The notes below the pieces were generated by a model, which saw nothing but the letters and a program-made list of their open reading frames with translations, was not told the DNA's origin and ran no database searches. Of a stretch of 64,000 nucleotides of DNA, positions 13,645 to 49,985 are shown piece after piece. The translations under genes and the position numbers were made by a program. Numbering within the stretch: the first letter of the stretch is position 1; each line of letters begins with the position of its first letter. The stretch is from an uncultured delta proteobacterium (GTDB lineage Bacteria > Myxococcota_A > Polyangia > Polyangiales > Polyangiaceae), in contig CAWAIF010000003.1 of assembly GCA_963782055.1 (NCBI GenBank), positions 4,800,001-4,864,000 on the forward strand, in the 5' to 3' direction.

Positions 13645-13680
13645 GAAACGTCGGAGTGAAAGGATCCTTGCACTTTGACG
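13645..13680. repeat. Dispersed palindrome copy 1
   Basis: gaaacgtcggagtgaaagga|tccttgcactttgacg: 13 WC + 2 GT pairs, 1 mismatch. Confidence 0.8.
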
Positions 13681-13683
13681 CTG

Positions 13684-13740
13684 GTGTCCGGGGACGGGGA
13701 GGGGGGACAGGGGGGACAGGGGATGGGGAACGCGCGGGGG
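13684..13740 (+). repeat. G-rich GGGAC(A/G) repeat tract
   Basis: ggggacggggaggggggacaggggggacaggggatgggg. Confidence 0.65.
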
Positions 13741-13749
13741 CGAATTTTG

Positions 13750-14409
13750 TCACGGCGCCGCTGTGGGGTAGGTCGCGGTGATCTCCAGCTTGTAGCGGGC
13801 GTGGCCGTGGGTGGTGTCGAGGACGGCGCCGGAGAGGTTGTGCTTCACGGCCGTGGCGCACGCCGACACGGCCCGGCTGCCCCGCAGGGTGCGGCCCTCG
13901 TGCGGCAGGGTGAGGAAGATGGGCCGGCGCTTGCGCGCGTAGCTCACGTCGGCGACGTAGACGAGGTCGCCGCCCTCCTGCGCGGACGCCGCGCAGCTCG
14001 TGGCATCCAGGATGGCCTTGGCGAAGGCCTGCTCGAAGCCGGGCAGGTGGTCGCACTCGGAGGGGGGGGTGTGGTGCGGGCCGGGGTCGTGGCACTCCAG
14101 CACCTGGGCCGGGGAGAGCGTCACGCCATTCTTGGAGGCGACGCTGTCCTTGGCCGCGGAGGCGGAGGCGGCATCCGCTTCGGCCTGGGCGAGCGCGGCC
14201 GCGGCGGAGGCCGAGGCGGCAGCGGGGTCTTCGGCCACGGCGCGCGGGCGCCGCCAGAGGTAGAGCGGGATGACGACGAGCACGAGCAGGAGCAGCAGCG
14301 CGGCCACCACCTGCACGCGGCCCGGGCGGTCGACGGAGAGGTCCAGGCCGGGTCGGGAGAGGGGCCGCGGCTCGGACGGCGGGTGCGACGGGTTGGGCGA
14401 GTCGGCCAT
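13750..14409 (-). CDS. Hypothetical single-pass membrane protein
   Basis: One N-terminal TM, Ala/Ser linker, Cys-containing extracytoplasmic domain. Confidence 0.7.
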   Translation of the reverse strand: MADSPNPSHPPSEPRPLSRPGLDLSVDRPGRVQVVAALLLLLVLVVIPLYLWRRPRAVAEDPAAASASAAAALAQAEADAASASAAKDSVASKNGVTLSPAQVLECHDPGPHHTPPSECDHLPGFEQAFAKAILDATSCAASAQEGGDLVYVADVSYARKRRPIFLTLPHEGRTLRGSRAVSACATAVKHNLSGAVLDTTHGHARYKLEITATYPTAAP

Positions 14410-14418
14410 CGCAGCCGG

Positions 14419-16131
14419 TCAGGGGTCGACGAGCTGCCGCACTGAGGCGGTGGACTCGCAGCGCGCGATGGAAGCCATGAGCTCCAGCCCCTCCGGCAGC
14501 ATGCCCTGCACCTGGCCCACCACCTGCTCGACCAGGTTGCGGGCTTCCTGCGGCCCGGGGCCCACCATCGCCACGGCGAAGCGCAGCGGGCCGGTCTTCC
14601 CCGCGACGACGGCGATGAGCGACAGCAGCAGCATGTCGGTGAGCTCGACGACGCGCGTGGCCGCGCGACGCAGGGCGAGCATCTCCAGGATGGTGGGACA
14701 ATCGGAGACGAGGCGGTTGGGCCCGCGGATCTCGTAGCGGGCGACATGCAGCGGGGAGTCCACCCACTCGGCGAAGCCGGCCTCCTCGTCCAGGGCCTTG
14801 AGGAGCTGCTCGCGGGCGAGCAAACCGGTGAGGCCGTCGCGCTTGCCGAGGTAGCTGCGCGCGCGCTTGTGGTGGGGGCTCTCCCGCGCGAAGGAGACGA
14901 GCTTGAAGCGCAGCTCGCCGAACTGCACCTCGCCGCCGTGCATCACGTTGACCTGCTTGCGGCGCTCGTAGGTGTGCTCGGCGTAGGTGCCGTTGGTGGA
15001 GCCCTGGTCGTCGACGGCCCAGGTGCCGTTCTGCCAGCGCAGCTTGGCGTGCTGACCGCTGACGGTGGCCTCCGGCACCACGATGTCGTTGTCGGCCCGG
15101 CGGCCGACTGTGAACTCCGGCTTGTCCAGGCTGACCAGCTCCCCCACGAACTCCGGCGCGTTGGAGGCGAAGGTGGCCAGGAAGGCCTGCTGCGCCGGCG
15201 AGAACTGCGTCGCGGCGCTGCGGCCGGGCGGCGGCCCGGGGTCCAGCCGCTCGCGCGCGACCTGCACCGGGTTGGTCGTGAGTGTGGTGGGGTTGAAGAA
15301 GCGAAGGTGGCGCGCGGGCAGGCGCTGCTGCGCGTCGTCGGAGAGGCAGCGGAAGACCTGCTTCACCTCGTCGATGCTCAGCCCGGCGGGGACGTCGAAC
15401 ATGATCTGCGCGCGCATGGGCTTGGCGCGCGGCTTGTAGCCCGGCTCCGGGACGCGGCAGGTCCACATCTCCCAGAGGGTGAGGCCCAGCGCGTAGACGT
15501 CGTCCTCCATGGAGGCGCCGCCGGAGCGGATGCGCTCGGGGGCCATGTAGTTGGGGGTGCCGCCGTCGGGCGGGGCGCCGGGGCGGCGGGCGCTGACGCG
15601 GGCGCGCTCCTTGGCGAAGCCGAAGTCCAGCACGACCGCCTTGCCCAGCCCGCCGTCGGGCGTGGAGGTGACCATGACGTTGCCGGGCTTCAGGTCGCCG
15701 TGGACCAGACCCTGCGCGTGGATGGCGGCGACGCCGGCGGCGACCTCGCTCGCCAGGCGGCGGAACTCGTCGGAGGTGTAGCCGCCCTGGGCCTTCTTCC
15801 GGCGGATGTGCGTGTGGAGGGTCTGACCGGTGATGTACTCCATCACCAGGATGGGCCCGTACTTGGAGGGGGCCAGGTCGTGGACGCGGCAGACGTTGGG
15901 GTGGCTGACAGAGCGGGCGTGCAGCAGCTCCTGCCGCAGGGCCTCGTCGTCGCCGGGCATGCGCGACTCCTCCCGCACGATCTTCAGCGCGACCGGCTGC
16001 TGGGTGGCGCGGTCGTACGCGAGGAAGACCTCGCCCATCCCCCCCTTGCCGAGGCTCTGCCGGATCTCGTAGCGATCGTTGATCACCGTGCCCGGTGCGA
16101 TGGCTGCGGTGCTTCGAGAGGGCTCGGACAT
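14419..16131 (-). CDS. Ser/Thr kinase + FHA + degenerate GGDEF-like domain
   Basis: GKGGMGEV, VALK, HGDLKPGN, DFG, YMAPE; FHA VGR...VSGQHA...GSTNGT; RDGLTGLL followed by a GGDEF-like region lacking GG(D/E)EF. Confidence 0.85.
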   Translation of the reverse strand: MSEPSRSTAAIAPGTVINDRYEIRQSLGKGGMGEVFLAYDRATQQPVALKIVREESRMPGDDEALRQELLHARSVSHPNVCRVHDLAPSKYGPILVMEYITGQTLHTHIRRKKAQGGYTSDEFRRLASEVAAGVAAIHAQGLVHGDLKPGNVMVTSTPDGGLGKAVVLDFGFAKERARVSARRPGAPPDGGTPNYMAPERIRSGGASMEDDVYALGLTLWEMWTCRVPEPGYKPRAKPMRAQIMFDVPAGLSIDEVKQVFRCLSDDAQQRLPARHLRFFNPTTLTTNPVQVARERLDPGPPPGRSAATQFSPAQQAFLATFASNAPEFVGELVSLDKPEFTVGRRADNDIVVPEATVSGQHAKLRWQNGTWAVDDQGSTNGTYAEHTYERRKQVNVMHGGEVQFGELRFKLVSFARESPHHKRARSYLGKRDGLTGLLAREQLLKALDEEAGFAEWVDSPLHVARYEIRGPNRLVSDCPTILEMLALRRAATRVVELTDMLLLSLIAVVAGKTGPLRFAVAMVGPGPQEARNLVEQVVGQVQGMLPEGLELMASIARCESTASVRQLVDP

Positions 16132-16276
16132 CGGCTGGGAAACCTAAGCCACAACGCGGGACGGTGACAACGTGCGATCCCACGCCGGGCGGGCCGCGGG
16201 CTCGGTCAAGCGTCTACGATCCGCGACGCCGACGCAAGGCTTTGCGGCGCGTGCACCCTCACCGGCCGGGGTGGGG

Positions 16277-16295
16277 TGAGACGGGACCCGTCTCA
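16277..16295 (-). terminator. Hairpin overlapping the stop of the oxidoreductase (possible terminator)
   Basis: tgagacggg-a-cccgtctca inverted repeat; no U tract. Confidence 0.3.
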
Positions 16296-17822
16296 GCCCA
16301 GCTCGACCTTGCTCCACATCTCGCGACGCATGCGCTCCTTGCGGCGGTCGGTCCGGGTGATGATGCGCGCGACGCCCCACGCGCTGAGGAGCTCGCCCTC
16401 CTGCCCCAGGGCGGGCATCGTCGTCTTGCCGACGACGAAGGCGTTGCCCAGCGGGGTGCGGCTCGGCTCGCCGGCGAGGCCGTAGAGGTGCGGCGGGTCC
16501 ACCTCGTACTGCGCGTCCATCGCCTCGGCGTCGATGGAGCCGCCGCCGGCGCGCGTGCGCACACGGTCGACGAGCGTGCAATCCCCGCCGCGGTGATCCC
16601 AGAGCGGCTGGCCGTCGTGGGGGGAGTCGACCACCATCAGGTGGCGCTCCAGGAAGGGGAAGAAGCGCTGGAGCCGGGCGAGCACGCGGGTGCGCTGCTC
16701 GTCGACCGGGGGATCGTCGTCGGAGACCAGGGTCTCGGCCACGAGGAGGGAGGCCCCGAGCGCCGGATCGCCGGCGGGGTGGCGCTGGACGTGGATGGCG
16801 CCGTGGAGGCGGTGCGGGTCAGGCACGATGAAGGACTCGTGGGCGAGCGCGTCGGGGATGCCGTCGTCGCGCGCGACGACGGAGACGACGAACCGGCGCG
16901 CCCGCGGCCGGAGCTCGGGCAGCGCGGCGAGCGACCTGCGAGAGGGCTCGAAGCCATCCGCAAGCTCCACCAGGGACAGCGACGGCAGCGCGGCGATGAC
17001 GAACTGCACGCCGGTGGGATCGACGTCGCCGTCCACGATCGCCCCGCGGACCTTGCCGCCGCGGACCACCAGGCGGTCCACCCGGGCGCTCAGCTCCACC
17101 TCGCCGCCCTGGGCGCGGATGCGGTCGAGGAGGAAGTCGGCGACCTCGTCCTCGCCGCGGGCCAGGCGCGAGACGCCGCGTGTCCACGCGCCGTGCAGGC
17201 GGGCCAGCGCGAAGGGCGGGAGCTCGCCGTAGAGGTCGCTCGACATGCGCGCCGTCACCTCCACCACCGCGCGGTACTCGTGGTCGCGAGGGAACTCCGC
17301 CAGGTAGTCGCGCGCGCCGTCGCGGACGTGGGGGAGCGCGCCGACGATGCGGCCGGTCTCGCGGCGCTCCCAGAAGCCGCCGGGGGGCCAGGTGACGTCG
17401 CGCTCGAAGGCGGCGTCCGCCGCGGCGTTGGTGCGGGCCAGCTCGGCGTAGAGGTCGTCCACCACGCGGCGCACCTCGGGGAACTCCCGATCGATCTCGC
17501 GAGCGAAGAGGGCGGTGTCGGGCGGCAGCTCGATGCGCCGGCCGGGCAGCAGCACCTGGGTCATGGGGTCGAGCGCGGTGATGCGCCGGCGGAAGGTCTG
17601 CGACTGCGCCAGCTCCACCAGGATGCGCGTCCAGGCCGGGGACGCCGCGCCCAGCAGGGTGAACGCGCGCCGGGCGAGCGTCAGACCTTCGAAGGAGTAA
17701 AAGCAGGGCTTCTGCCCCTGCCCCACCACGAGCACCCGCCACGAGCGCCGCGACAGGAGCGCGGCGGTGGCCAGCGCCCCGACGCTCGTCCCGAGGACGA
17801 CGGCGTCGTAGTGCTTCGACAT
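16293..17822 (-). CDS. FAD-dependent oxidoreductase, phytoene dehydrogenase-like
   Basis: N-terminal YDAVVLG...ALATAALL Rossmann-like start; C-terminal PALGQEGELLSAW. Confidence 0.65.
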   Translation of the reverse strand: MSKHYDAVVLGTSVGALATAALLSRRSWRVLVVGQGQKPCFYSFEGLTLARRAFTLLGAASPAWTRILVELAQSQTFRRRITALDPMTQVLLPGRRIELPPDTALFAREIDREFPEVRRVVDDLYAELARTNAAADAAFERDVTWPPGGFWERRETGRIVGALPHVRDGARDYLAEFPRDHEYRAVVEVTARMSSDLYGELPPFALARLHGAWTRGVSRLARGEDEVADFLLDRIRAQGGEVELSARVDRLVVRGGKVRGAIVDGDVDPTGVQFVIAALPSLSLVELADGFEPSRRSLAALPELRPRARRFVVSVVARDDGIPDALAHESFIVPDPHRLHGAIHVQRHPAGDPALGASLLVAETLVSDDDPPVDEQRTRVLARLQRFFPFLERHLMVVDSPHDGQPLWDHRGGDCTLVDRVRTRAGGGSIDAEAMDAQYEVDPPHLYGLAGEPSRTPLGNAFVVGKTTMPALGQEGELLSAWGVARIITRTDRRKERMRREMWSKVELG

Positions 17823-17887
17823 ACGCCGTCAGTTAGCACACTCATGCCCGGGCGAGGCCCCTCAGGCCACGACGCCCGACGCGCCTC

Positions 17888-19096
17888 TCAGCTCCCCTGC
17901 GTCTTGCAGCCGACGACGATCTGGACCTGGTTCTGGTCGTCCGCCTTGATGTCGGTGCAGGCCTGCCCGTAGAGCTGGATGTGGGTCTGGTTGGAGATGT
18001 AGTCCCAGCCGTCCTGGTGCTTGGTGTCGCGGAGGACCTGCTGCGTGCCGTTCTTGGTCTGGATCTGGACGTTGACCTTGGACAAATCCGCCGTGCCGCC
18101 CTGCGGGGTGGGTACCTCGAAGGAGCAGTCGAACGCCTGGAGCGCGATCTGGTCGAAGGCCTGCTGGATGTCCTTCGCGAAGGTCTTGTTGTTGAGGGCG
18201 TAGAAGCAGTCGTCGTTGGCGGAGCAGCCGGCGTAGCGGTCGGTGCCGCCCGCCTGGGCGATCGGGGAGAGGTACTCCGGCCGGGCGCCCTTGGTGCCGT
18301 CGATGACGCCCAGGACGAAGGTGCGCACGCCCGCCTGCTCGCCCGCGGCGGCCGCGTCGACCACGCGCTGGATGTCGTTGGCGTTGGGGTCGTTGCTGTC
18401 GTCGCAGGAGGTGGGGTAGCCGTCGGTCAGCAGCACGACCGACTTGGTGCCGGCGGCCTTGGAGGCCTGCTGCTGATCGATGGCGGCGGTGAGGCCGGCG
18501 GCGAGCGGGGTGCCCCAGTAGAAGTCCTTGTCCGAGCTGGAGACATAGGCCTCGATGTCGCTCACCTGCTGCGGGTCCAGGTTGGCGACCGGGACAGGGA
18601 GCTGGTAGGTCGGCTCGTCGCAGCGGGGGTGGATGCCGGGCAGCTCGCCGTTGGCGCAGCTACAGGTGACGTCGTTGAGCGTGGAGCTGATCCAGCAGCA
18701 GCTGATGGGGGAGTCGCCCTGCGGGAACATCATGGCGCCGGCGCGCGTGCTCGGGGGCAGGGTGCCCAGCAGATCGAAGAGGCCCTTCTTCGTCGCGACC
18801 CAGCGCGTATCGCCGCTCGTCAGCTTGATCTGCATGCTGCCGGAGCGGTCCATCAGGAAGAGGACGTTGCCGGGGGCCTTCTCCGCGGCGTAGACGCCCT
18901 GCGCGTCGGCGCACCAGGGGGGCGGCGCGGCGTCGAGCGGCACGGTGGGCTCGTCCCCCTGACCGGCGTCCGGCGGGTCCGCCGGCTTGGCGGGGATGCT
19001 GGCATCCGGGTCGGCTGCGCAGCCGGCGGCGGGGGCCAGGCAGGCCAGCCCGAGGAGCGCGAGAACCACGAGGGATGTAGGAGCAGGTCGCATCAT
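17888..19096 (-). CDS. VWA-domain lipoprotein
   Basis: MIDAS DRSGSM, TP, LLTDG; lipobox AAGC. Confidence 0.9.
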   Translation of the reverse strand: MMRPAPTSLVVLALLGLACLAPAAGCAADPDASIPAKPADPPDAGQGDEPTVPLDAAPPPWCADAQGVYAAEKAPGNVLFLMDRSGSMQIKLTSGDTRWVATKKGLFDLLGTLPPSTRAGAMMFPQGDSPISCCWISSTLNDVTCSCANGELPGIHPRCDEPTYQLPVPVANLDPQQVSDIEAYVSSSDKDFYWGTPLAAGLTAAIDQQQASKAAGTKSVVLLTDGYPTSCDDSNDPNANDIQRVVDAAAAGEQAGVRTFVLGVIDGTKGARPEYLSPIAQAGGTDRYAGCSANDDCFYALNNKTFAKDIQQAFDQIALQAFDCSFEVPTPQGGTADLSKVNVQIQTKNGTQQVLRDTKHQDGWDYISNQTHIQLYGQACTDIKADDQNQVQIVVGCKTQGS

Positions 19097-19108
19097 AGGC
19101 GCCGGCTA

Positions 19109-19125
19109 TACAACATGTGTGCCTA
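19109..19125 (-). promoter_or_regulatory. Possible sigma54-like promoter (variant -12)
   Basis: TAGGCACACATGTTGTA (GG-N10-GT), 14 nt before the ATG at 19096. Confidence 0.4.
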
Positions 19126-19188
19126 GGTGCGCTAGGCAAATCGGGATCAGCGTGGACGGGAAATTCCGGCATCTCCGTGGGTGTGATC

Positions 19189-19232
19189 GTCCCACATGGT
19201 GTCCCATGTGGGACAAAGGGACACCAGGGACA
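19189..19232. repeat. Perfect 11-bp hairpin plus three GGGACA units
   Basis: gtcccacatgg-tgtc-ccatgtgggac, then aaagggacaccagggaca. Confidence 0.65.
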
Positions 19233-19286
19233 TGGACCGTCGGCGATCCAACCCCCCGAGCCGTCCGGGTCTTCACGGCGTGCGGC

Positions 19287-19324
19287 CGTCGTCGGACTGC
19301 GAGCATGCTAGCGGTCCGGCGGCG
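19287..19324. repeat. Dispersed palindrome copy 2
   Basis: cgtcgtcggactgcgagca|tgctagcggtccggcggcg: 15 WC + 3 GT pairs, 1 mismatch. Confidence 0.8.
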
Positions 19325-19359
19325 CAGCCCGGCTGCGGGGGCGGTGGTAGGGTGCCGGC

Positions 19360-20727
<1,368 letters not shown>

Positions 20728-20798
20728 CTGTACGGATAGTGGTTCTCCCGTATTTACCGGACGGACCGTCGGGGTCACAGATTGGGGGGGTCAGAATC

Positions 20799-21347
20799 AT
20801 GCTCTCGAAGCGTTCGATCGCGTTGCCTCGGCACGTCTCTCTCGCCCAGGTGGCCGACGCCTCGCGAGACGCGGTGCGTGCATTCCTCGAACTGGACGCG
20901 ACCAAGCCGACGCTGGCGGCGTGGCTGCGCGGCCCGTACCGGGAGGCGACGCGCTTCGGGCCGCGACGGATGGTGACGCCGCCCAGCGAGGGCAACACCG
21001 AGCCGCGCGGCGCCATCGTCGCCGCGGCGCAGGCGGAGGTGACCGCGGCGGTCCGCATGGCGCTCGCGGCGCGCGCGACCGAGGATTTGGTGCGCAAGCT
21101 CCCGCCGGTGGTGCACATCGTCCCCGCGCACGACACCTCCGGGGCCCGGGGGTTCGTCCCGATCGACGCGCAGGGCGGGCGCCTGGCGGACAGGGTGATC
21201 GCCCTGGTCCTCGCCGACTACCTCACGCGCCCCCGCGACTTCGTCGCGCGGCCGGTGCTGGCGGAGGACGTCCGTCCGCCGCACAAGCGGGCGGTCGCGC
21301 AGAACGCGCCGACGCAGCCGCAGATGCCGGCGGTGCGCCGCAAGTGA
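20799..21347 (+). CDS. Hypothetical protein, paralog of 35139-35858
   Basis: Shares WLxGPYR and L.DRV..LV..D.L.RP motifs with the paralog. Confidence 0.65.
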   Translation: MLSKRSIALPRHVSLAQVADASRDAVRAFLELDATKPTLAAWLRGPYREATRFGPRRMVTPPSEGNTEPRGAIVAAAQAEVTAAVRMALAARATEDLVRKLPPVVHIVPAHDTSGARGFVPIDAQGGRLADRVIALVLADYLTRPRDFVARPVLAEDVRPPHKRAVAQNAPTQPQMPAVRRK

Positions 21348-21356
21348 GCGGGGCGA

Positions 21357-23689: not shown

Positions 23690-23755
23690 TGGCGGCACCA
23701 TAGCGCAAACGCGGAACTTGTCGGCGCGCCGGTCGTCTACCACCATGGTACGGAC

Positions 23756-24493: not shown

Positions 24494-24512
24494 CCGTGAT
24501 ACCGTCCGCGCC

Positions 24513-25856: not shown

Positions 25857-25939
25857 GATCCCTTCCCTGGCGTCCGCCCGCGCCGGGCGCCCGGCGCGCG
25901 GCCCTTTACGCCGGGCACCTCCGCGGCCTATGCACCCCC

Positions 25940-28649: not shown

Positions 28650-29771
28650 TCAGGGTACGACCTTGTGCACCACCACCGGCTGCGACGCGCCCGCGTCTCC
28701 GCTCGGGTCCTCCACCACGTACGTCACCATGTTGGCGTTCGGCTCGTTGCAGGCGAAGTGCACCGTGTGCTTGCCGGCGCCGTAGGGGCTGAGCACCCCC
28801 AGGCCGACAGCATCCTGCGGGGCGGCCACCAGCAGCGGCGTGCCGCTCTGCACCACGGTGTCGGAGGACACGTCCAGGATCTGCGCGCTCTTGATCAGCG
28901 CGGGCATCTGCGGGTCCTGCCCGCCCTGGCCGTCCAGCACGATCACCACCCCTCCGCTCTGCTCGAAGGTGGCGAGCGCCGAGGCCCACCCCGCGCCGAT
29001 GCCCGCGAGCGTGCTGGCCGGCGCCTTCGACTGGTCGTAGACGACCAGCACGTCGGTGTTCTGGTTGGTCATCGCCGAGCTCACGTCGGACGGCTGCGAG
29101 GCGGTGGTGTAGGTCACCGTCCGGTTCTGCGCCTGCGCCGCGGCGGTGATGACCGACTTCACCGCGTTGACGGCGTTGGGCGCCGCGTACTGCTCGTAGG
29201 AGCGCACCTGGATGGTGTTGCCCGGCGGCAGCGTCGCCGCGTTGCCGAGCACCTTGGCCTGCGCGGCGGAGTACGCGCCGGCGAAGTCGTGTCCGATGAC
29301 CACCGCGTGGCCTGCCACGCTGCCCTGGCACTTGCCCGCCGAGCAGAGCAAGGACTGGCAGACGTTGCCGCACCCGCCGCAGTTGAAGGGGTCGGTCATG
29401 GGGTCGACGCAGACCGCGTTGCAGACGATCTGGCCCTGCGGGCACCCGCCGCCGCCGTCGGCGTCGGTGACCGCGCCGTCGCCCGCGCCGCCGTCACCCA
29501 CCGCGCCGTCGCCGGTGCCGCCGTCGCCCGTCGCGCCGTCGCCCGTCGCGCCGTCGCGGCTCGCGTCGATCCTGGAGCCGTCGGCGTCGCCGGAGTCCCC
29601 CTGGCCCCCGCCGTCACCGTTGACGTCCCCCGCGGGCACGCACGCCTCGCCGACGAGCACGTAGCCGGGCGCGCACTCGCCGCCGACGAGCGCGTTGTCC
29701 GCGCCGCACCCCGCCCCCGCCGCGAGGAGCGCGCCGGCCGTCAGCGCAGCGAGCGCCGCCACGAGCTTCAT
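28650..29771 (-). CDS. Cys-rich lipoprotein with DG(A/G)xG linker repeats
   Basis: Lipobox GAGC; DPFNCGGCGNVC myxobacterial Cys repeat. Confidence 0.8.
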   Translation of the reverse strand: MKLVAALAALTAGALLAAGAGCGADNALVGGECAPGYVLVGEACVPAGDVNGDGGGQGDSGDADGSRIDASRDGATGDGATGDGGTGDGAVGDGGAGDGAVTDADGGGGCPQGQIVCNAVCVDPMTDPFNCGGCGNVCQSLLCSAGKCQGSVAGHAVVIGHDFAGAYSAAQAKVLGNAATLPPGNTIQVRSYEQYAAPNAVNAVKSVITAAAQAQNRTVTYTTASQPSDVSSAMTNQNTDVLVVYDQSKAPASTLAGIGAGWASALATFEQSGGVVIVLDGQGGQDPQMPALIKSAQILDVSSDTVVQSGTPLLVAAPQDAVGLGVLSPYGAGKHTVHFACNEPNANMVTYVVEDPSGDAGASQPVVVHKVVP

Positions 29772-31141
29772 CGGTCCTCCTTGGGCATCGAGAGCGACTG
29801 CGTCTTGGTGATCTGGAACTCCACGCGCCGGTTCTTCCGCAGCGCCTGCACCGTCCTGCCGGTGGCCCGCGGCTTCTTGTCACCGTAACCGTGCGTCTTG
29901 ATGCGCGAGTCCGCCACGCCGAACTTCACCAGCAGCCGCTTCACGCTCTGCGCGCGGGACCGCGAGAGCATCAGGTTGTGTTGCTCGGTGCCGCGCTCGT
30001 CGGCGTGCCCCTCGATGTCGACCTCCTCGATGTCGGGGTTGGCCAGCAGCAGCTCCGCCACCTTCTTGACGATGGGCCAGCTCTCGTGGCGCACCCGCGG
30101 GCTGTCGGTGCCGAAGAGGATGACCTCGTCGAGCTCGATCTCGTCACCGGCGACGCGCACCGAGCCGGCCGCGGGCGGGCACCCGTTGGTCTTCGGATCG
30201 TTGGTCGGCACTCCGACGACGTCGGGGCACGCGTCCTCCACGTCGGGGATGCCGTCGGCGTCGCGGTCGGCGGCGGGGCACCCGTTCGTCTTGGGGTCGG
30301 TGGTGCGCACGCCGGGCGTGTCCGGGCACGCGTCCTCGTCGTCGTAGACCGCGTCGCCGTCGCGGTCGGTGCGCGGGCAGCCGTTGGTCTTCGGGTCGGT
30401 GGTGCGGCGGCCGGGGACGGTCGGGCACGCGTCCTCGTCGTCGTAGACCGCGTCGCCGTCGCGGTCGGTGCGCGGGCAGCCGTTGGTCTTCGGGTCGGTG
30501 GTGCGGCGGCCGGTCACGTCCGGGCACGCGTCCTCGTCGTCGTAGACCGTGTCCTTGTCGCGATCGGTGCGCGGCGGCGGCTTGGGCGGCGGCGCGCCGA
30601 GCCCCACCTCGATCCCGAACGCCAGGATGTGCGCGTCCTCGGGGCGCGGCCCCTCCCCGAGCTGGAAGATGTGCGTGTAGCCGACGTAAGGGCCGAGATC
30701 GAAGCGGCCCTTGCCCACGCGGAAGTCCCAGCCCACGTGCGCGTCGAAGCCGGGCCGCGCGACGTTGCCGGTGGGCGCGAGCCCGCCGTTGGCGTCCAGC
30801 CACAGACCGCCGGGCTTCGCGGAGAAGGGGCGCACCCGCACGCCGAGCATCGCCCCGATGCCGATGCCGGTGCCCTTGGCCACCAGCGAGGGATCGTCGT
30901 TGCTGCCCGCCGAGAGCACGATGGTCGAGACCTCCGCCTGCACGCCGAACGGCCCCGCGACGGGGATCTCCACCGAGACCGCCCCCGCTCCGCCGAAGCC
31001 GAACTGCGTCTGTTGCGGCGCGCCGACGGCGTGAGCGAGCCCGCCGCCCACGTGCAGCCTCACCGGGTCCGCCTGCGCGCTGCGCGAGAGGGTCATCGCG
31101 CTCGCGGCGGCGAGGAGGACGAGGAGTGCGTGCCGGCCCAT
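29768..31141 (-). CDS. OmpA-family protein with thrombospondin type-3 repeats
   Basis: DRDGDAVYDDEDACP repeats; IEGHAD...LSRSRAQSV...NRRVEF. Confidence 0.93.
   Translation of the reverse strand: MGRHALLVLLAAASAMTLSRSAQADPVRLHVGGGLAHAVGAPQQTQFGFGGAGAVSVEIPVAGPFGVQAEVSTIVLSAGSNDDPSLVAKGTGIGIGAMLGVRVRPFSAKPGGLWLDANGGLAPTGNVARPGFDAHVGWDFRVGKGRFDLGPYVGYTHIFQLGEGPRPEDAHILAFGIEVGLGAPPPKPPPRTDRDKDTVYDDEDACPDVTGRRTTDPKTNGCPRTDRDGDAVYDDEDACPTVPGRRTTDPKTNGCPRTDRDGDAVYDDEDACPDTPGVRTTDPKTNGCPAADRDADGIPDVEDACPDVVGVPTNDPKTNGCPPAAGSVRVAGDEIELDEVILFGTDSPRVRHESWPIVKKVAELLLANPDIEEVDIEGHADERGTEQHNLMLSRSRAQSVKRLLVKFGVADSRIKTHGYGDKKPRATGRTVQALRKNRRVEFQITKTQSLSMPKEDR
30180..30575. repeat. Four ~99-bp TSP3-coding tandem repeats
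   Basis: Near-identical TDRDGDAVYDDEDACP..PG.RTTDPKTNGCP units. Confidence 0.8.
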
Positions 31142-35136: not shown

Positions 35137-35138
35137 CG

Positions 35139-35858: not shown

Positions 35859-35975
35859 GGCTCCTCATCGGCCGCCCCGCAGAGGCGGTTCCGCGGACAG
35901 CCTTATCGAAGAATTCGAGCCGGAGCGCAAGACCCGGGGACTCCCTGCCCCCCCTTTCATCGACACCGCGCCACG

Positions 35976-36012
35976 CGCCGGAGTGCAAGCATGCTTGCAC
36001 TCCGACGTTCGG
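35976..36012. repeat. Dispersed palindrome copy 3 (inverted; perfect 26-bp core)
   Basis: cggagtgcaagca|tgcttgcactccg at 35979-36004, followed by acgttcg. Confidence 0.85.
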
Positions 36013-36688: not shown

Positions 36689-36707
36689 CCCTCGACCCCG
36701 GAGGGGC

Positions 36708-39248
<2,541 letters not shown>

Positions 39249-39378
39249 CGAGAGACCTCTCTGAGTGAGGGCCTCTCGCGTCCGTGTGGCGGTGCCGAAG
39301 CCTCGGTGCCCCAGCGGAGAGATGCGAGAGACCCGCGATCTCGAGGGGTTGGCCGCCTGCGTTCGCGCAGGACGCTTC

Positions 39379-39394
39379 AGCACGCCTCGTGCCG
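39379..39394 (-). promoter_or_regulatory. Candidate sigma54 promoter upstream of hppA
   Basis: CGGCACGAGGCGTGCT (GG-N10-GC). Confidence 0.45.
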
Positions 39395-39520
39395 GCCGGG
39401 CGTACCCGAGCGGCGGCGGCGATCTACCAGGATGGGGCGCCCCATGCAATGGATCGGAGGTAAAAGCGCGGAAACATTGGTCGAACCGGGATGGGCCCGC
39501 GGGGCGGGGCCGCCGGCCGC

Positions 39521-39548
39521 ACGGACCGCGAGCATGCTGACAGTGGGG
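39521..39548. repeat. Dispersed palindrome copy 4 (degenerate)
   Basis: cggaccgcgAGCATGCTgacagt; left arm matches copy 2. Confidence 0.55.
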
Positions 39549-39577
39549 CCTCCGACGCCCCGGTCACCGCGTCCCGC

Positions 39578-41298: not shown

Positions 41299-41367
41299 GC
41301 CGCGACGCTAAATCACCACCGCAGATTCGGCTACGCAGATCGTGAGGCCGCGAGCCTCGCTGCCAGG

Positions 41368-41397
41368 CCTCGGAGCGGGAGCATGCGAGCGGTCGCA
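41368..41397. repeat. Dispersed palindrome copy 5 (degenerate)
   Basis: cctcggagcgggagcatgcgagcggtcg, closest to the copy at 49950. Confidence 0.6.
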
Positions 41398-41526
41398 CGG
41401 TCCACGACGACCTCGGCAGGGACGCGCCATCCCGGCCGGGTCGCCACAATCGAGCCGGCCCTTCGTCACTCATCGAAGAGTCACGAGGGGCTTGCCCCAT
41501 CGCCCCACCTGTGCGATGGCGCGCCG

Positions 41527-43071: not shown

Positions 43072-43074
43072 ACG

Positions 43075-43479
43075 TCAGGCTTCGGAGGAGGCGGGAGGCG
43101 CTTCCTCGAGCTCCCACGCCACCTCGCCGAGCAGGCCCTCCAGGGTCTCGAGCGGCATGGGCTTCCAGGGCGTGCCCATGTCGACGAGATCGCCGCTGGC
43201 GTCCATCGGCAGGTTCGCCTCGATGGGGTAGTAGCGGTTGTGCGCCTCGATGAGCGCGTTCAGCTTCGTCAGGCGCTGGTGGACGCTGCGCATGAAGCGC
43301 TCGTCCGCGGAGGGCGCGCGCAGATCGCCGAGCAGCGACTCACGGAGGTCCTCGATGCGGCGGCGCCGGATCATGTAGGCGGGCGGCCCTGCGACGATGG
43401 CGCGCACGCGCTCGGCGGTGGTGAGGCTGAAGTTGCGCGCAGGCGCGGCGGTCTGGATGGGGCGGGGCTTCTTGGGCAC
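43075..43479 (-). CDS. Hypothetical protein
   Basis: GTG start; GPPAY.RR.RIE and HNRYYPIEANLPMD; GC3-rich. Confidence 0.65.
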   Translation of the reverse strand: MPKKPRPIQTAAPARNFSLTTAERVRAIVAGPPAYMIRRRRIEDLRESLLGDLRAPSADERFMRSVHQRLTKLNALIEAHNRYYPIEANLPMDASGDLVDMGTPWKPMPLETLEGLLGEVAWELEEAPPASSEA

Positions 43480-43496
43480 GGCTCGCCCCCATCTTG

Positions 43497-44750
43497 TCAA
43501 AAGCCGGGCGTCGTCGCGACCGGCTTTGCCCCCCGCGGCGGCGCCGGCGCGGCGTGCGAGTGGCGGGAGGAGGCCGCGGGGCGGTGAGCCGTCACGCCCG
43601 CCTCTGCCACGGCGGAGGCGCTCGCCGGCGCGGCGGCGATTCGCGCGACGGCCGCGGTGGAGGCCGCCGCGGACGGCGCTGCGGGCGCGCTCGAGGTGGC
43701 GGGCGGGGTCCCCTCCGGCCCCCCGAGCGGCTCGGCCGCGGGCGAGGCGCGCCGGGCGGTGATCACCGCGGTGGCGGACGCGCCCAGCACGAAGGCCGCG
43801 ACGATGAGCCACGGGGTGCGGGAGGGTCGCGGCGGGGGCGAGGAGGGCGCGACCATGGGCCGGAGCTCGCCGCGCGTCTCGAGCTTGGGCAGCGGCGGCT
43901 TCGCCTCGCGCAGCAGCGCGGAGAGCTCCTCGTCGGTCTTGCCGACAGCCTGGGCGATCGCGGACGCGAAGGCGGCCGCGCCTGGGTGGCGGGCGTAGGC
44001 CTGCTTGGAGAGGGCGCGATCGATCTCCAGCCACAGCCGCGGGGGGATCCGCTCGTGGGGGTCCACCGTGGTCTCGAGCACCCTGGCGATGGCGCCGGCG
44101 GCGTCGGGGGCGGCGAAGGGCGACTCGCCGGTGAGGGTCTCGTAGAGGACCACGGCGCAGGAGAAGACGTCGCTGCGGCCGTCGAGGGTCTCGCCGCGCA
44201 CCTGCTCCGGCGACATGTAGCGCGCGGTGCCGAGCACGCGCCCGTCGATGGTCTTGACGGAAGAGACGGCGGCCTTCGCCACGCCGAAGTCGAGCAGCTT
44301 GGGCGTGACGCGACCATCGGGCTCGACCGCGAGCAGGACGTTGGCGGGCTTGACGTCGCGATGCACGACGCCGACCGCGTGCGCGTGCTCGAGCGCGACG
44401 AGGATGGGCGCGATGACGGCCACCGCCTCCGCGGGCTCGAGCGGCCCGCGCCGCAGCCGCTGCTCGACGGTCTCGCCGCGCAGGCGCTCCATCACCAGGG
44501 CGAGGGCGCCGTCCGGCTCCTCGAGCAGGTCGAAGACGCGCACGATGCTGCGATGGGAGAGCAGCGCGGACACGTGCGCCTCGTGGCGGAAGCGCAGGGC
44601 CACGTCCGGCTCGCCGGCGAGGCTCGGCTCGAGCAGCTTGACCGCGACGTCGGCCCCGGTGACCTCGTTGCGAGCGAGGTAGACGTCGCCCATGCCGCCG
44701 GAGGCGATCTTGGAGACGAGTCGGAGCTTGCCGCCGGACAGGGCCCGCAC
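43497..44750 (-). CDS. Membrane Ser/Thr protein kinase
   Basis: SGGMGDVY, HRDVKPAN, DFG and YMSPEQ motifs. Confidence 0.93.
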   Translation of the reverse strand: MRALSGGKLRLVSKIASGGMGDVYLARNEVTGADVAVKLLEPSLAGEPDVALRFRHEAHVSALLSHRSIVRVFDLLEEPDGALALVMERLRGETVEQRLRRGPLEPAEAVAVIAPILVALEHAHAVGVVHRDVKPANVLLAVEPDGRVTPKLLDFGVAKAAVSSVKTIDGRVLGTARYMSPEQVRGETLDGRSDVFSCAVVLYETLTGESPFAAPDAAGAIARVLETTVDPHERIPPRLWLEIDRALSKQAYARHPGAAAFASAIAQAVGKTDEELSALLREAKPPLPKLETRGELRPMVAPSSPPPRPSRTPWLIVAAFVLGASATAVITARRASPAAEPLGGPEGTPPATSSAPAAPSAAASTAAVARIAAAPASASAVAEAGVTAHRPAASSRHSHAAPAPPRGAKPVATTPGF

Positions 44751-44783
44751 GCCCGCAGTATCCCACGGCGGGCGCGGACGCGC

Positions 44784-46145
<1,362 letters not shown>

Positions 46146-46255
46146 GGTACTCCACCGGGTCTGACGGGACACCCCGGTCACGCAGCTTACCGGCGGTGGT
46201 CGCTCGGGGGACCGGGTGGCCGTCGTAGCTGCTCGACAAAGCACCACGTGGCGCG

Positions 46256-46271
46256 CGGCACGCGGCTTGCG
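46256..46271 (+). promoter_or_regulatory. Sigma54 promoter divergent from the EBP gene
   Basis: CGGCACGCGGCTTGCG; -12 C at 46270, ATG 14 nt later. Confidence 0.7.
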
Positions 46272-46283
46272 ACGGGCGTCGTC

Positions 46284-46862
46284 ATGCGCTCGCTCCACGC
46301 TCGTGGCCTCCTCGTCGGGGTCGCGCTCGTCCTCGTCGCCGCTTGCAGCGGCGACGGCGTCTCCTCAAAGGACCAGGCCAAGACGGCGTACCTCAGCCTG
46401 GACACTTCCATCGACCGGGCCATCAACCTTGGCTTCGCCGGGTTCAACGCGGCGCAGAGCGCCAACATCCCCACCCAGAGCGCCAGCGGCGACGCCTCCG
46501 GGACGATGAGCATCGACGGGCAGGTGGACCAGGGCGCCTCGGCGAACAAGACGATGCGCCTCAAGGAGACGCTCACCGGCTACTCCGACGACGGCAAGAT
46601 CGTCAACACGACGACGCAGCCGGCGGAGCTGGACATGGACCTCAAGGGCATCCCGAACGGGACGATGACCGGCACCCTCGCCGGCACCTACGCGATGGAG
46701 GGCGACCTGAAGGGGAACGTGACGCTCGACCTCACCCTCTCCAGCGCCCTGCAGCCGGATGCGCAGGACGCGAGCAAGGTGGTACGCAAGCCGGGAACCA
46801 CGCGGATCCAGGGCAAGGCGACCTCCGGGTCCGCCGTCTTCGACATCGACATCACGCGCTGA
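46284..46862 (+). CDS. Hypothetical lipoprotein
   Basis: Lipobox VAAC; Thr/Gly-rich beta-type sequence. Confidence 0.8.
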   Translation: MRSLHARGLLVGVALVLVAACSGDGVSSKDQAKTAYLSLDTSIDRAINLGFAGFNAAQSANIPTQSASGDASGTMSIDGQVDQGASANKTMRLKETLTGYSDDGKIVNTTTQPAELDMDLKGIPNGTMTGTLAGTYAMEGDLKGNVTLDLTLSSALQPDAQDASKVVRKPGTTRIQGKATSGSAVFDIDITR

Positions 46863-47415
46863 CCGCACACCACGGCGGGCGGGCACGTGCGCGGCGCACG
46901 CGCTCCTCCTCGCGGAGCACCCAGAACCCGCCTTCGGTGAGCCTGTCGAGTGTGGCCTCGTCGCCGAACCCGACGCGAATGCGCATGCACAGCGCCTCCA
47001 GGTGCCTGCGGGCGCGTACGCACGCGCGGGCGGCGGGCCAGCGGCGCTCTCCCGGCGCGAGCGCGCCATCGAGCGCGAGCCCCACGTGCCCGACGAGCAC
47101 CAGCCCGAAGAACGCGCGACGCACGCTGCGGCGGCCGTCGGGCGTGAGCGCGACGATGCAGTCGCGCCCATCGCGCCGCCGCTTGACGAGGCCAAGCTGC
47201 TCGAGGGATCGCATCATGCGGCTGATGGTGGAGCGGGCGACGCCGAGTCCGCGGCGAAGCTGGCTTTGCAGGGTGACGGTGCGCGTGCCGAGCCGGTAGA
47301 GCGCGTCGAGCAGATCGAAGCGCGCCGCCGTCAGGCCCACCGCCCGGAGCGCCCGCCGCGTCAGCCTGAGCGTGGCGTAGTACGCCCGCTTGATGGTGAA
47401 GAAGAGAGGGTCCAT
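46852..47415 (-). CDS. MarR-like winged-helix protein, copy B
   Basis: MDPLFFTIKRAYYATLRLTRRAL...LGVARSTISRMMRSLEQLGLV. Confidence 0.8.
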   Translation of the reverse strand: MDPLFFTIKRAYYATLRLTRRALRAVGLTAARFDLLDALYRLGTRTVTLQSQLRRGLGVARSTISRMMRSLEQLGLVKRRRDGRDCIVALTPDGRRSVRRAFFGLVLVGHVGLALDGALAPGERRWPAARACVRARRHLEALCMRIRVGFGDEATLDRLTEGGFWVLREEERVRRARARPPWCAVSA

Positions 47416-47427
47416 TCCCCAGCCCAA

Positions 47428-47443
47428 CGCACCCCCCATGCCA
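47428..47443 (-). promoter_or_regulatory. Sigma54-type promoter of MarR-like copy B
   Basis: TGGCATGGGGGGTGCG; the -12 C lies 14 nt before the ATG. Confidence 0.6.
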
Positions 47444-47468
47444 CCCCCCCCTCCCCAGAATTCCCGCG

Positions 47469-47506
47469 AAACGTCGCATTGCAAGCGCGCTAGCAATTGG
47501 ACGTTT
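47469..47506. repeat. Dispersed palindrome copy 6
   Basis: aaacgtcgcattgcaagcg|cgctagcaattggacgttt: 16 WC pairs, 3 mismatches. Confidence 0.8.
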
Positions 47507-47507
47507 G

Positions 47508-47612
47508 GTGTCCCCGGACAGGGAGGGGGGACAGAGGGGACAGGGGGGGACAGGGAGGCTGGGGGCGAGGAGAGAGGGTGTGGGGACAGGGGACACGGGC
47601 AACGGGGGGGCG
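47508..47612 (+). repeat. G-rich GGGACA repeat tract
   Basis: ggacagggaggggggacagaggggacagggggggacaggg...ggggacaggggac. Confidence 0.7.
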
Positions 47613-47728
47613 AACGGCCACGAGGCGGGGTTGGGTGGCAGGCAGGGTGACCACCTCTTCGGGGCGAGGGTCGGCTCGTCCTTCGACGAATCCCGGGTTT
47701 CGTGAGCGGACGGCGGCGGCTTGGGGCC

Positions 47729-47744
47729 TGGTGCGGCGCTTGCG
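47729..47744 (+). promoter_or_regulatory. Candidate sigma54 promoter
   Basis: TGGTGCGGCGCTTGCG; ATG 15 nt after the -12 C. Confidence 0.55.
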
Positions 47745-47757
47745 TGCATGGGGGGGG

Positions 47758-48588
47758 ATGCGTGCTTCTACCCTCTTCGCGCTGCTGGCGGCGGGCGTCG
47801 GTCTGGTCGTCGCCTGCGGCTCCGACGGCACCGGGCCGGGCTCGGACTACTGCTCGCAGAATCCTTGCGGCAACAACCGGCAGTGTGATCCAAGCCTGGG
47901 TTGCGTCGAGTGCACCGGCGACTCCCAATGTCCCGCGAGCGCGAAGTTCTGTGTGCAGGGGAGCTGTGGAGCGTGCCGTACGTCCTCCGACTGCGGCGCG
48001 GGCGCCCCGGCCTGCTGGCCCTCCGACCACCAGTGCCACGCCGCATGCACGTCCAACGGCGACTGCCCACCGCAGGCAAAGATCTGCGACGCGCAGACGG
48101 GCATCTGTGTGGGGTGCAACGTCAACGCCGACTGCACCGACGGGCCGCGCGTCATCTGCGATCCGCAATCGTCACAGTGCGTGCAGTGCACGCAGAGCTC
48201 GGATTGCCCCGCCTCGGCGCCGAAGTGCTTCGCCGCGCGGGGCGATTGCGTCCAGTGCTTCTCCAACGGCGACTGCAGCGGCACCACGCCCGTCTGCGAC
48301 ACGCAGGAGTTCCGCTGCCGGTCCGGCTGCACCGGCGACGGCGACTGCCCCACGTCCGCGCCCAAGTGCGACACCGGGCGCCAGCGCTGCGTGCAGTGCC
48401 TGTCCGCCGGCGACTGCTCCGGCAGCACGCCGCTCTGCAACACCCAGGGCCAGTGCACGCCATGCCTCGCCGACACCGACTGCGCCGCCCCGACGCCCTT
48501 CTGCCGCAACGCCGAATCGTGCGTGGAGTGCCGCACGCCCAACGACTGCGCACAAGGGATGAAGTGCCAGAACGGCACGTGTAACTGA
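47758..48588 (+). CDS. Cys-rich repeat lipoprotein
   Basis: Lipobox VVAC; CVQC....DC...P.C repeats. Confidence 0.88.
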   Translation: MRASTLFALLAAGVGLVVACGSDGTGPGSDYCSQNPCGNNRQCDPSLGCVECTGDSQCPASAKFCVQGSCGACRTSSDCGAGAPACWPSDHQCHAACTSNGDCPPQAKICDAQTGICVGCNVNADCTDGPRVICDPQSSQCVQCTQSSDCPASAPKCFAARGDCVQCFSNGDCSGTTPVCDTQEFRCRSGCTGDGDCPTSAPKCDTGRQRCVQCLSAGDCSGSTPLCNTQGQCTPCLADTDCAAPTPFCRNAESCVECRTPNDCAQGMKCQNGTCN

Positions 48589-48661
48589 CCCCCAGCCCTG
48601 GCAGGCGCCGGACCGCAGCGACCGGGCACGCCGGCAGCACCGCGGTGGTAAGGTCGCCGCC

Positions 48662-49615
48662 ATGGCGTGCCGCGGTGGCCCCCTCTCGGCGAGCACATGG
48701 ACACTCGTCGCGTGCCTGATCGCGCTGGCGCCGGGCGCGTCGGCGCAGACGCCGGAGCTGGACCGCGCCCGCGCCCTCTTCACCGCGGCGCTCCAGCAGC
48801 AGCAGGATGGCCACCCCGACCTCGCGCTCGGACAGTTTCGCCAGGTCGCCGCGGTACGGGATACTTCGCAGGTGGAGTACCGCATCGGGACGTGCCTGGA
48901 GTCACTCGGCAAGCGGCGCGACGCCGTCGTCGCCTACGACCGCGCCGCGCACCTCGGCCGCGGCGACCCGAAGGCAGCCGACGTGGTGGACGCCGCCAAC
49001 GCGCGCATCGCGGCGCTCGCGCGCAGCATGGGGACGCTGGAGGTGACGGTGCAGGGCGCCGCCGCCAACCGGGCGGAGCTCGCCGTCGACGGCGAAGCGC
49101 TGACGCCCGACCAGCGGCGCGCGCCGCTCTTGCTGGAGCCGGGCAACCACGACGTGAGGGTGACCGCACCCGGGACGCTCCCCGCGTCCGCGAGCGTCGC
49201 CGTCGTCGCCGGCGGCCGCGCGGGGGTGACGGTGGTGCTCGCGCCGGTCCCGCCGCCCCCGCCGGCGGCGACCTGGAACGCGCGGCGCCTGGGCGGCGTC
49301 GTCACGATGGGCGCGGGCGTCGTCGCGCTCGGGGGGATGGGCGTGGCGCTTTGGGTGAGGCACGATCGCATCGCGCAGGTGCAGACCGACTGCCCGGGCA
49401 ACGTGTGCCCGTCGTCGCTGCGCGGCGAGGTGGAGAGCGCGCGCAGCGACGCGCATGCCATGGAGCCCGTCGCGGCGATCCTGGGCGGGGTGGGCGCCGC
49501 CGCCCTGGCGCTGGGCATCGTGCTCGTCGCCTGGCCAAGCCACGGACGCGCGGCGGCCCCCTCCGCCTGGCTCACGCCGACCCCTGGGGGACTCGCCGCG
49601 GGAGGCACATTTTGA
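48662..49615 (+). CDS. TPR/PEGA-like protein
   Basis: ARALF, VDG...LEPGNH.V.V motif, C-terminal TMs ending GTF. Confidence 0.75.
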   Translation: MACRGGPLSASTWTLVACLIALAPGASAQTPELDRARALFTAALQQQQDGHPDLALGQFRQVAAVRDTSQVEYRIGTCLESLGKRRDAVVAYDRAAHLGRGDPKAADVVDAANARIAALARSMGTLEVTVQGAAANRAELAVDGEALTPDQRRAPLLLEPGNHDVRVTAPGTLPASASVAVVAGGRAGVTVVLAPVPPPPPAATWNARRLGGVVTMGAGVVALGGMGVALWVRHDRIAQVQTDCPGNVCPSSLRGEVESARSDAHAMEPVAAILGGVGAAALALGIVLVAWPSHGRAAAPSAWLTPTPGGLAAGGTF

Positions 49616-49944
49616 CCTCCCGCGCCCCCCTCGTCGCGTGCCTCGCCGCCTCCCTGACGCTCGCCCTCGCTGCGCTCGCCGCGTGCGAGGCCGTACCCGA
49701 CGTCGTCTACGTCGGCGACGACGCCGGCGACGCGGGGGGCGACTCCGCCACCATCCCCGACGGCGCCAACACCTGCCCCGGCCTGGTTCCGCCGTATGCC
49801 ACCGCGTGCTGCGGGGCGATCCCCTGCAGCGGGGCCAACTGCGCGGCCACGTGCGCGGATTGCGCCAGGTGCTCGCTGCTCGACCTGTGCTGCCCCAACG
49901 CGCAGAACCGCGCCGTCTGCCGGCCCTCGCTCCGCTGCAACTGA
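49612..49944 (+). CDS. Small Cys-rich lipoprotein
   Basis: TTG start overlapping the upstream TGA; lipobox LAAC; Cys-rich C-terminus. Confidence 0.65.
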   Translation: MTSRAPLVACLAASLTLALAALAACEAVPDVVYVGDDAGDAGGDSATIPDGANTCPGLVPPYATACCGAIPCSGANCAATCADCARCSLLDLCCPNAQNRAVCRPSLRCN

Positions 49945-49949
49945 GGGCC

Positions 49950-49985
49950 GAAACGTCGGATTGGGAGCATGCTAGCGGTCGGGTG
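49950..49985. repeat. Dispersed palindrome copy 7
   Basis: gaaacgtcggattgggAGCATGCTagcggtcgggtg. Confidence 0.75.

Follow-up and report, generated by a model that had tools for sequence, protein, structure and literature searches.

What are the seven short palindromes scattered through this stretch of a Polyangiaceae genome, and why do their two arms seem to change together? The stretch (64,000 nucleotides from an uncultured delta proteobacterium, contig CAWAIF010000003.1, positions 4,800,001 to 4,864,000; hereafter the window) had been interpreted from its letters alone. This sequence-only reading proposed selection on base pairing, in a hairpin, a cruciform, or an RNA stem; its alternatives were co-conversion of the arms and a family of operators for diversifying dimeric regulators. 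We favor the operators: genes for MarR-family regulators are linked to the palindromes (dyads), and the site tracks a residue in the recognition helix of the protein. Our best explanation, which we consider probable, is that the dyad acts, as double-stranded DNA, as the operator of a MarR family expanded in this lineage, that it lies within an autoregulated cassette with a sigma54-type promoter, that the cassette is copied by host recombination, and that loose operators ("solos") leak out of it. We found no published account of this dispersed MarR cassette family in the full-text literature; subscription journals were mostly outside the search, and the supplementary tables of catalogs of repetitive extragenic palindromic (REP) sequences might still list the repeats. 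Below, G000 is the window's genome; G001, G002, G004, G005, and G039 are relatives; L numbers denote loci; and C3 is a contig.

All seven dyads lie where the sequence-only reading had placed them (Table 1 gives a 38-nucleotide register), and all are intergenic by independent gene calls, which were made with a simple codon model and may be wrong individually. The variant cores at 13661 and 47484 are also present, as are the three kinds of pair (G-C, C-G, and T-A) noted for a single arm position. The compensatory covariation that they suggested is only borderline: across the seven copies, arm columns 11 and 28 hold C-G twice, G-C twice, U-A once, U-G once, and an unpaired combination once, and 15 to 24 of 500 shuffles reach the observed values. 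Nor are all seven copies free repeats. Five are solos, but the dyads at 13646 and 47469 lie about 55 to 70 bp upstream of MarR genes.

These two dyads belong to cassettes of about 700 bp with a common order: TGTCC repeats, the dyad, a G-rich spacer, a sigma54-type box, and the start codon of marR. The source genome (7.58 Mb, 71.6% GC, 12.8% intergenic) contains 58 MarR genes of this kind in three subfamilies, 54 of them with frames of normal length. The protein is a MarR family member by sequence and by fold: its structural model scores 84 in the predicted local distance difference test (pLDDT), its top Foldseek matches are MarR proteins, and it has profile matches to MarR chains. Some cassettes at unrelated loci are 95 to 99% identical (at most 99.2%). 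In the window, the gene of cassette 1 has 94.8% DNA identity over 730 bp to a copy at C3:2516222; the gene of cassette 2 has a short tail and overlaps the end of a convergent gene by 11 nt. Homology between copies starts at the repeats and stops at the stop codon (subfamilies B and C) or, in several pairs from subfamily A, inside the variable tail. In G001, two cassettes share 98% identity across 714 bp, and their homology runs precisely to the stop codon. The protein is under purifying selection, with a ratio of nonsynonymous to synonymous divergence (dN/dS) of 0.21 across 820 pairs of 41 copies and 0.16 for the 19 closest pairs, both as pairwise estimates only. Patchy gene conversion was not detected among copies of subfamily A (0 of 903 pairs at the strict threshold of p < 1e-7). 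The cassette has no transposase gene and encodes only MarR.

Sigma54 promoters have GG at -24 and GC at -12 with a fixed spacing, and transcription starts about 12 nt downstream. The box in the cassettes agrees with this consensus, and G000 has 54 matches to PF00158, the sigma54-activator family. These matches, genes for Ser/Thr kinases, and a protein cluster most frequent in Myxococcota (score 0.87, a lead only) point to a myxobacterium. Genome-wide, of 79 sigma54-type boxes that precede genes, 36 stop exactly 12 nt short of the start codon, and at spacings of 20 to 27 nt, 19 of 21 are accompanied by a ribosome-binding motif. Because of the peak at 12 nt and the ribosome-binding motifs at longer spacings, we infer that the box is a promoter and that many of the transcripts are leaderless; the cassette promoter would then use sigma54. 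The repeats at the left end take the form TGTCC or TGGCC according to the host genome, across unrelated cassette clades, so a host activator probably binds them.

Protein and site vary together. We compared 218 nonredundant loci (58 from G000; relatives and 80 metagenome contigs supplied the others), of which 15 were omitted for short upstream sequence. When sites were scored with position ±2 masked, a dyad was found upstream of the homologs at 147 of the remaining 203 loci, as compared to 9 of 182 downstream controls. Of 86 loci with Arg at residue 66, 85 have C/C at ±2, and the sole exception is a mis-centered pick that becomes C/C when re-centered. Glu66 occurs with G/G in 55 of 55 loci. 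When every protein column was compared with every site position in an unbiased scan, this pairing came out first (z = 13.8; the next value is 5.8), and the next DNA-facing pair is residue 60 with ±4. In a tree built without the helix, the residue changes four times and the base four times; two independent pairs of changes fall on well-supported branches, and both are concordant. As a separate observation, clades whose recognition helix begins with distinct residues (L111, L116, L118, and L131; L129 to L141; L169 to L171) carry their own bases at ±4 to ±6.

In standard base readout, Arg reads G and Glu reads C on the same strand. Residue 66 aligns with Arg65 of Escherichia coli SlyA. Sections of PMC3936728 describe Arg65 as making the one bidentate bond to a guanine, with a wing that favors thymine nine positions from the axis, and give GTTAG as the signature of MepR. 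In our consensus, 70% of half-sites have T at this ninth position, GTTAG lies as far from the axis as it does in MepR, and the dyad core matches the SlyA consensus, which is given as TTAGCAAGCTAA in a section of PMC5797941. The recognition-helix residue probably reads the bases near the dyad axis. In the window, the neighbor of the AGGATCCT copy is a Glu protein and that of the AGCGCGCT copy an Arg protein. The change between AGCATGCT and AGGATCCT is probably explained by the Arg-to-Glu change in the adjacent protein. Because a MarR dimer would read both half-sites, a change in its helix would alter both arms together, and this would account for the apparently compensatory changes.

To count sites in the whole genome, we built a starting matrix solely from 43 cassette-linked dyads and used a cutoff of 14 bits. 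This matrix has 98 matches at or above the cutoff, 96 of them intergenic, while an order-4 Markov simulation expects none and five column-shuffled matrices give 0 to 8 (largest contig only). An iterated matrix finds 218 sites (194 intergenic; about 8 expected), of which 42 are cassette-linked and 176 are solos. The density is thus far above either expectation, with a strong intergenic bias. The large genome-wide family implied by seven copies in the window does exist, but site density in the window is about fourfold the genome-wide mean, which is 1.8 sites per 64 kb.

Solos occur in all classes of gaps, in proportion to gap length. Within 250 bp of a solo, 134 genes start, and 21 distances between neighboring sites are under 250 bp. 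Coding sequence in G000 contains 24 of the 176 solos, several of them weak. The flank resembles the cassette spacer at 46 of the 176, as compared to 3.3 expected, which suggests that many solos are partial copies of the cassette. Left-end repeats and sigma54 boxes are not above background beside the solos in G000 (4 of 176 each). Site density is not correlated with GC content or coding score, and GC skew gave no clear origin. Three arrangements involve pieces of the cassette leader. At C3:4235030-4235270 in G000, there are three tandem 101-bp copies of the dyad plus cassette spacer, with no marR gene. At L207, L213, and L231, leader pieces (the dyad with repeats or with a sigma54-type box) stand directly before unrelated genes; the L213/L231 case is kept in two species, and co-option is possible. 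In the window, several TGTCC/GGACA words at 19190-19240, upstream of the solo at 19287, resemble the left-end repeats, and there is no marR gene there.

The loose sites match the protein type that is resident in each genome. With ±2 masked, 111 of 132 intergenic solos in G000 are of the C/C type, and the proteins there are 35 with Arg or Lys versus 12 with Glu. Sites of the G/G-type pattern number 9 to 49 per genome in five genomes dominated by Glu proteins and 2 in a sixth, and 55 of 61 genomes have none; in four of the five, these sites outnumber the cassettes, and G000 has none of that pattern. The C/C-type pattern has 47 sites in G000, 20 in G039, 7 in G001, and 0 to 3 elsewhere.

How widely are the cassettes spread, and where do they sit? 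All six genomes of the same genus carry 5 to 17 homologs. In the two sets that we searched, 15 of 61 and 6 of 151 genomes have a match. There are 356 protein clusters with E below 1e-30; a scan of species genomes with a single protein gave one weak Streptomyces match among the matches listed and says little about range. Viral contigs and plasmid records contain no relative, so we rejected a phage or plasmid origin.

Of 82 cassettes from relatives, 70 have both flanks mapped in G000 and 40 are syntenic (32 distinct gaps; 35 of the 40 are at most 150 bp). The comparison with empty sites that the sequence-only reading had suggested gave a uniform result: all 40 syntenic gaps lack both cassette and dyad in G000. 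Cassettes favor gaps between converging genes (28 of 58 in G000 and 35 of 70 in relatives, versus 19% of gene pairs), a preference that selection for safe harbors could explain alone. There is no target-site duplication: the longest word shared by the flanks is 4.99, versus 4.82 ± 0.09 for shuffled flanks (151 loci). In one case, the left boundary falls at a shared 5-nt word, and the cassette has taken the place of the final codons of the upstream gene. The same short gap holds cassettes of different clades in different genomes (L044, L045, and L143; L196 and L197), once in opposite orientations, which suggests insertion hot spots.

Sites also occur inside genes. We examined 51 sites in relatives (40 regions, three relatives), and 17 are inside coding sequence that aligns with a G000 gene. 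Seven of the 17 have no alignment gap within 21 nt; others look like short insertions in linkers. Four sites are shared with G000 at orthologous places but are of the other type (one inside a gene, three intergenic), which suggests that some sites are old and maintained. Only 3 of about 12 distinct syntenic gaps that we compared share a site.

We propose that the operator is a 22-bp core, extended to about 32 to 38 bp in G000. The self-contained cassette (activator-site repeats, operator, sigma54-type promoter, and leaderless marR) would have been copied repeatedly into gaps behind gene ends, and each copy would be autorepressed through the operator that separates its activator site from its promoter. 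Solos would be partial copies of the cassette leader, and operators in coding sequence would be short insertions or partial matches that were converted to the full site. We take the copying to be recombinational because the cassette encodes no enzyme; host functions might carry it out, by microhomology or template switching at protein-bound sites. MarR binding to the dyad, repression, and this copying route are predictions from sequence comparisons.

Other small-gene families in G000 have a similar build. A gene of 108 amino acids, which we take to encode a four-helix-bundle-like protein, is present in 15 copies (C3:2575596, 2485733, 3701247, and others) as single-gene units with a conserved inverted-repeat leader of 150 to 200 nt; homology ends at the stop codon, and some copies face each other in pairs. 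Small genes at C3:6009943, 1819997, and elsewhere (8 plus 4 copies), presumably for DUF559-like endonucleases, have the same leader-plus-gene build, and their homology also ends at the stop codon. Because these families show the same dispersal, the copying route may be general. Multi-copy proteins are also encoded at C3:5379231 (9 copies), C3:6184363 and 5238597 (10 to 11), C3:5357178 (15), and C3:5325263 (13). By sequence, these resemble a group II intron reverse transcriptase, an IS91-type transposase accompanied by an integrase, and transposases of other kinds; any of them could act in trans.

Several results weigh against the operator cassette as we describe it. First, the recognition code rests on 2 to 4 independent switches, and a sign test cannot reach 0.05; the marR gene and its site are linked and so travel together; 56 of the 203 loci were under the site cutoff and were left out of the count; and six proteins with Val or Thr have mixed sites. 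Second, solos show no promoter bias: 23 of 152 lie between convergent genes, and those in tandem gaps are nearer to the upstream stop (median 65 bp) than to the start (162 bp). Third, the empty sites come only from comparisons with other species, the microhomology junction is a single example, and the near-identical copies could also be explained by whole-cassette gene conversion among older copies. Finally, the outer arms (±12 to ±19) pair at 3.83 of 8 positions, versus 2.85 ± 0.11 with shuffled partners (115 loci in other genomes), which is beyond the expected footprint. Contacts that extend further, or the copying of one arm from the other, could explain this pairing; of the arm co-conversion raised by the sequence-only reading, only this outer part is still plausible.

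We tentatively entertain a different reading, in which the cassette is a selfish mobile regulator without an enzyme. The MarR protein would bridge sites or stall forks and in this way promote, via host repair, the copying of the DNA that it binds. A copy with a new helix-operator pair would escape repression by its siblings, as in phage immunity groups, and sites would accumulate by drive, as uptake sequences do. Perfect operators would be seeded across the chromosome, overwriting codons of conserved genes, and some would later be kept, rewiring regulation. The 58 copies with 54 intact frames fit this picture, as do the repeated switches of specificity with matching sites, the patchy presence among genomes, the insertions that replace the last codons of neighboring genes, and the sites in conserved genes of relatives, 7 of 17 without a nearby alignment gap. 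However, the purifying selection on close copies (0.16) fits a host-level benefit equally well, the similar dispersal of other small-gene families in G000 points to a general host route, and the mechanism of protein-driven copying is purely hypothetical.

A benefit to the host could also take the form of a global regulon or a nucleoid-organizing network (a SlyA-like counter-silencer or a site system like those of Noc, SlmA, or MatP), which we consider unlikely. Solos would then arise by point mutation and selection, and the gene copies would tune dosage or signals. Such a network is consistent with the solos at orthologous places (in three intergenic gaps and at one in-gene position) that are kept across species while their type changes to suit the resident protein, with the purifying selection on the protein, and with the 134 gene starts near solos. 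Yet only 3 of the 12 or so gaps share a site, many solos carry a copied cassette flank, there is neither a promoter bias nor a correlation of site density with GC content or coding score, and the family is missing from most of the relatives that we searched. The selfish and the regulatory readings exclude neither the operator cassette nor each other.

Selection on pairing, whether as a hairpin, a cruciform, or an RNA stem, is not supported. Among the 176 solos, symmetry at the freely varying positions (±1, ±5, and ±12 to ±15) does not exceed that of half-sites paired at random. Excess symmetry is chiefly at ±2, ±6, ±7, ±8, ±11, and ±16, and the arm position singled out by the sequence-only reading (±9) has weak symmetry (0.51 versus 0.44, p = 0.015 uncorrected). 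The G-T deviations that it noted show no bias: there are 51 G-T versus 46 A-C in 43 oriented cassette dyads and 79 versus 62 in 69 transcription-oriented solos. On the strand tested, the copies at 39516, 41365, and 49951 fold no better than shuffles, and four of the seven fold better than most shuffles. Rfam has no match in the window at the gathering score; two chance matches near 47469 are far under the threshold.

REP sequences are associated with REP-associated tyrosine transposases (RAYTs). The window had been said to lack a RAYT, and Y1 HUH genes are absent from the whole of G000 as well; there is none in G039, and tblastn with HUH proteins from relatives gave no match. G001, G002, G004, and G005 (loci L267 to L286) have 5 to 31 divergent Y1 HUH genes per genome; we examined 20 of the 64 listed HUH loci of relatives, and a dyad lies beside 1 of the 20. 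Tagged REPs, as described in part of PMC3733652, have an unpaired GTAG or CGTC at one end, a stem of 8 to 9 bp, a loop of 4 to 5 nt, and a CCA tail (CGTC type). No unpaired tag of this kind was found in the dyads; CGTC sits in the paired arm, and the symmetry reaches the axis. It is very improbable, and already largely refuted, that the dyads are REP-like hairpins maintained by selection for base pairing (in RNA or single-stranded DNA) and mobilized by a RAYT-type HUH enzyme with marR as a passenger: the dispersed, mostly extragenic placement near gene ends with 21 close doublets, the better folding of four copies, the outer-arm complementarity in other genomes, and the HUH genes of four relatives would fit, but they are outweighed by the missing HUH genes in G000 and G039, the single dyad beside 20 HUH loci, the unpaired free positions, and the lack of a tag, a wobble bias, or an Rfam match.

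Table 1. Dyads and cassette parts in the window (window coordinates; bits are matrix scores)
Feature	Position	Strand	Remarks
Dyad	13646..13683	none	G/G type at ±2; core AGGATCCT at 13661; putative operator of cassette 1; adjacent protein has Glu at the position of SlyA Arg65
Solo dyad	19287..19324	none	C/C type; 37.0 bits; between divergent genes for a VWA-domain protein and a class II DAHP synthase
Solo dyad	35973..36010	none	C/C type; 38.4 bits; flanked by two minus-strand genes without a Pfam match
Solo dyad	39516..39553	none	C/C type; 23.0 bits; between the end of a formyltransferase (purN-like) gene and the start of an H+-pyrophosphatase gene
Solo dyad	41365..41402	none	C/C type; 24.0 bits; flanked by a purM-like gene and a divergent gene
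Dyad	47469..47506	none	C/C type at ±2; core AGCGCGCT at 47484; 38.0 bits; putative operator of cassette 2; adjacent protein has Arg
Solo dyad	49951..49988	none	C/C type; 33.8 bits; a few bases past a stop codon, upstream of a penicillin-amidase-family gene
MarR-family gene, cassette 1	12982..13590	-	202 aa; Glu type; Pfam MarR_2 at 32 bits (cutoff, 27)
Sigma54-type -24/-12 box, cassette 1	13603..13618	-	12 nt before ATG; transcript predicted to be leaderless
Left end, cassette 1	13684..13720	-	TGTCC repeats ending in TGTCCCCGGACA; putative upstream activator site; homology between copies begins here
MarR-family gene, cassette 2	46852..47415	-	187 aa; Arg type; MarR fold; Arg66 aligns with E. 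coli SlyA Arg65
Sigma54-type box, cassette 2	47428..47443	-	12 nt before ATG; judged by the general sigma54 consensus
Left end, cassette 2	47507..47554	-	TGTCC repeats

Elsewhere in the window, minus-strand genes contain coding tandem repeats with periods of 99 nt (30164-30559) and 15 nt (29446-29589).

If the dyads are operators, this family offers a natural and repeated switch in the recognition code of MarR proteins, with Arg accompanying one base pair and Glu the other on both half-sites, and the switch could yield orthogonal repressor-operator pairs. It would also be a tractable case of an open question, namely how bacteria can acquire long operators and entire regulons in a short time: the regulator, the promoter, and the operator would be copied as one unit, and the loose operators follow the resident specificity, even inside genes. 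If the protein does drive its own spread, then this is a mobile element with no enzyme, only a transcription factor and its binding site.

Miniature inverted-repeat transposable elements (MITEs) and the IS91/ISCR insertion sequences, which use one-ended transposition, also leave near-identical copies at unrelated loci with empty sites in relatives, and both ends of our cassette, one fairly fixed and one sometimes ragged, resemble theirs. In contrast to these elements, the cassette has no terminal inverted repeats, target duplication, or transposase, and its ends coincide with functional limits (the first repeat and the stop codon). The DNA uptake sequences of Pasteurellaceae and Neisseria, as part of PMC2817400 describes them, are motifs that accumulate in coding sequence, preferentially at tolerant residues, and alter proteins. 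Sites in our family do so too, but each is a 22-bp palindrome, they number tens to hundreds of copies, and they are tied to a cytoplasmic regulator.

REPs and REP doublets forming hairpins (REPINs) that depend on RAYTs, to the extent covered by portions of PMC3733652 and PMC6006769, share several features with the dyads: they are dispersed palindromes of 20 to 40 bp, mostly extragenic, often behind stop codons, sometimes in doublets, and lineage specific. The dyads differ in having no unpaired tag or tail and in being symmetric to the axis, G000 has no RAYT, and the linked gene encodes a transcription factor whose specificity tracks the site. On these comparisons, the dyads belong neither to the REPs nor to the uptake sequences. 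The closest resemblance at the molecular level is to SlyA and MepR, which have the MarR fold, a palindrome upstream of their own gene, and the core and GTTAG signature cited above from parts of PMC5797941 and PMC3936728; the base-reading residue aligns with SlyA Arg65. Unlike SlyA or MepR, the regulators described here have 58 paralogs in a genome instead of one, and the whole cassette is copied to unrelated loci. The promoter has a sigma54-type box, with the operator about 35 to 50 bp upstream of the box instead of over the promoter. Finally, the genome carries about 170 extra near-consensus 22-bp sites, and the proteins show natural Arg/Glu switches and have extra C-terminal helices.

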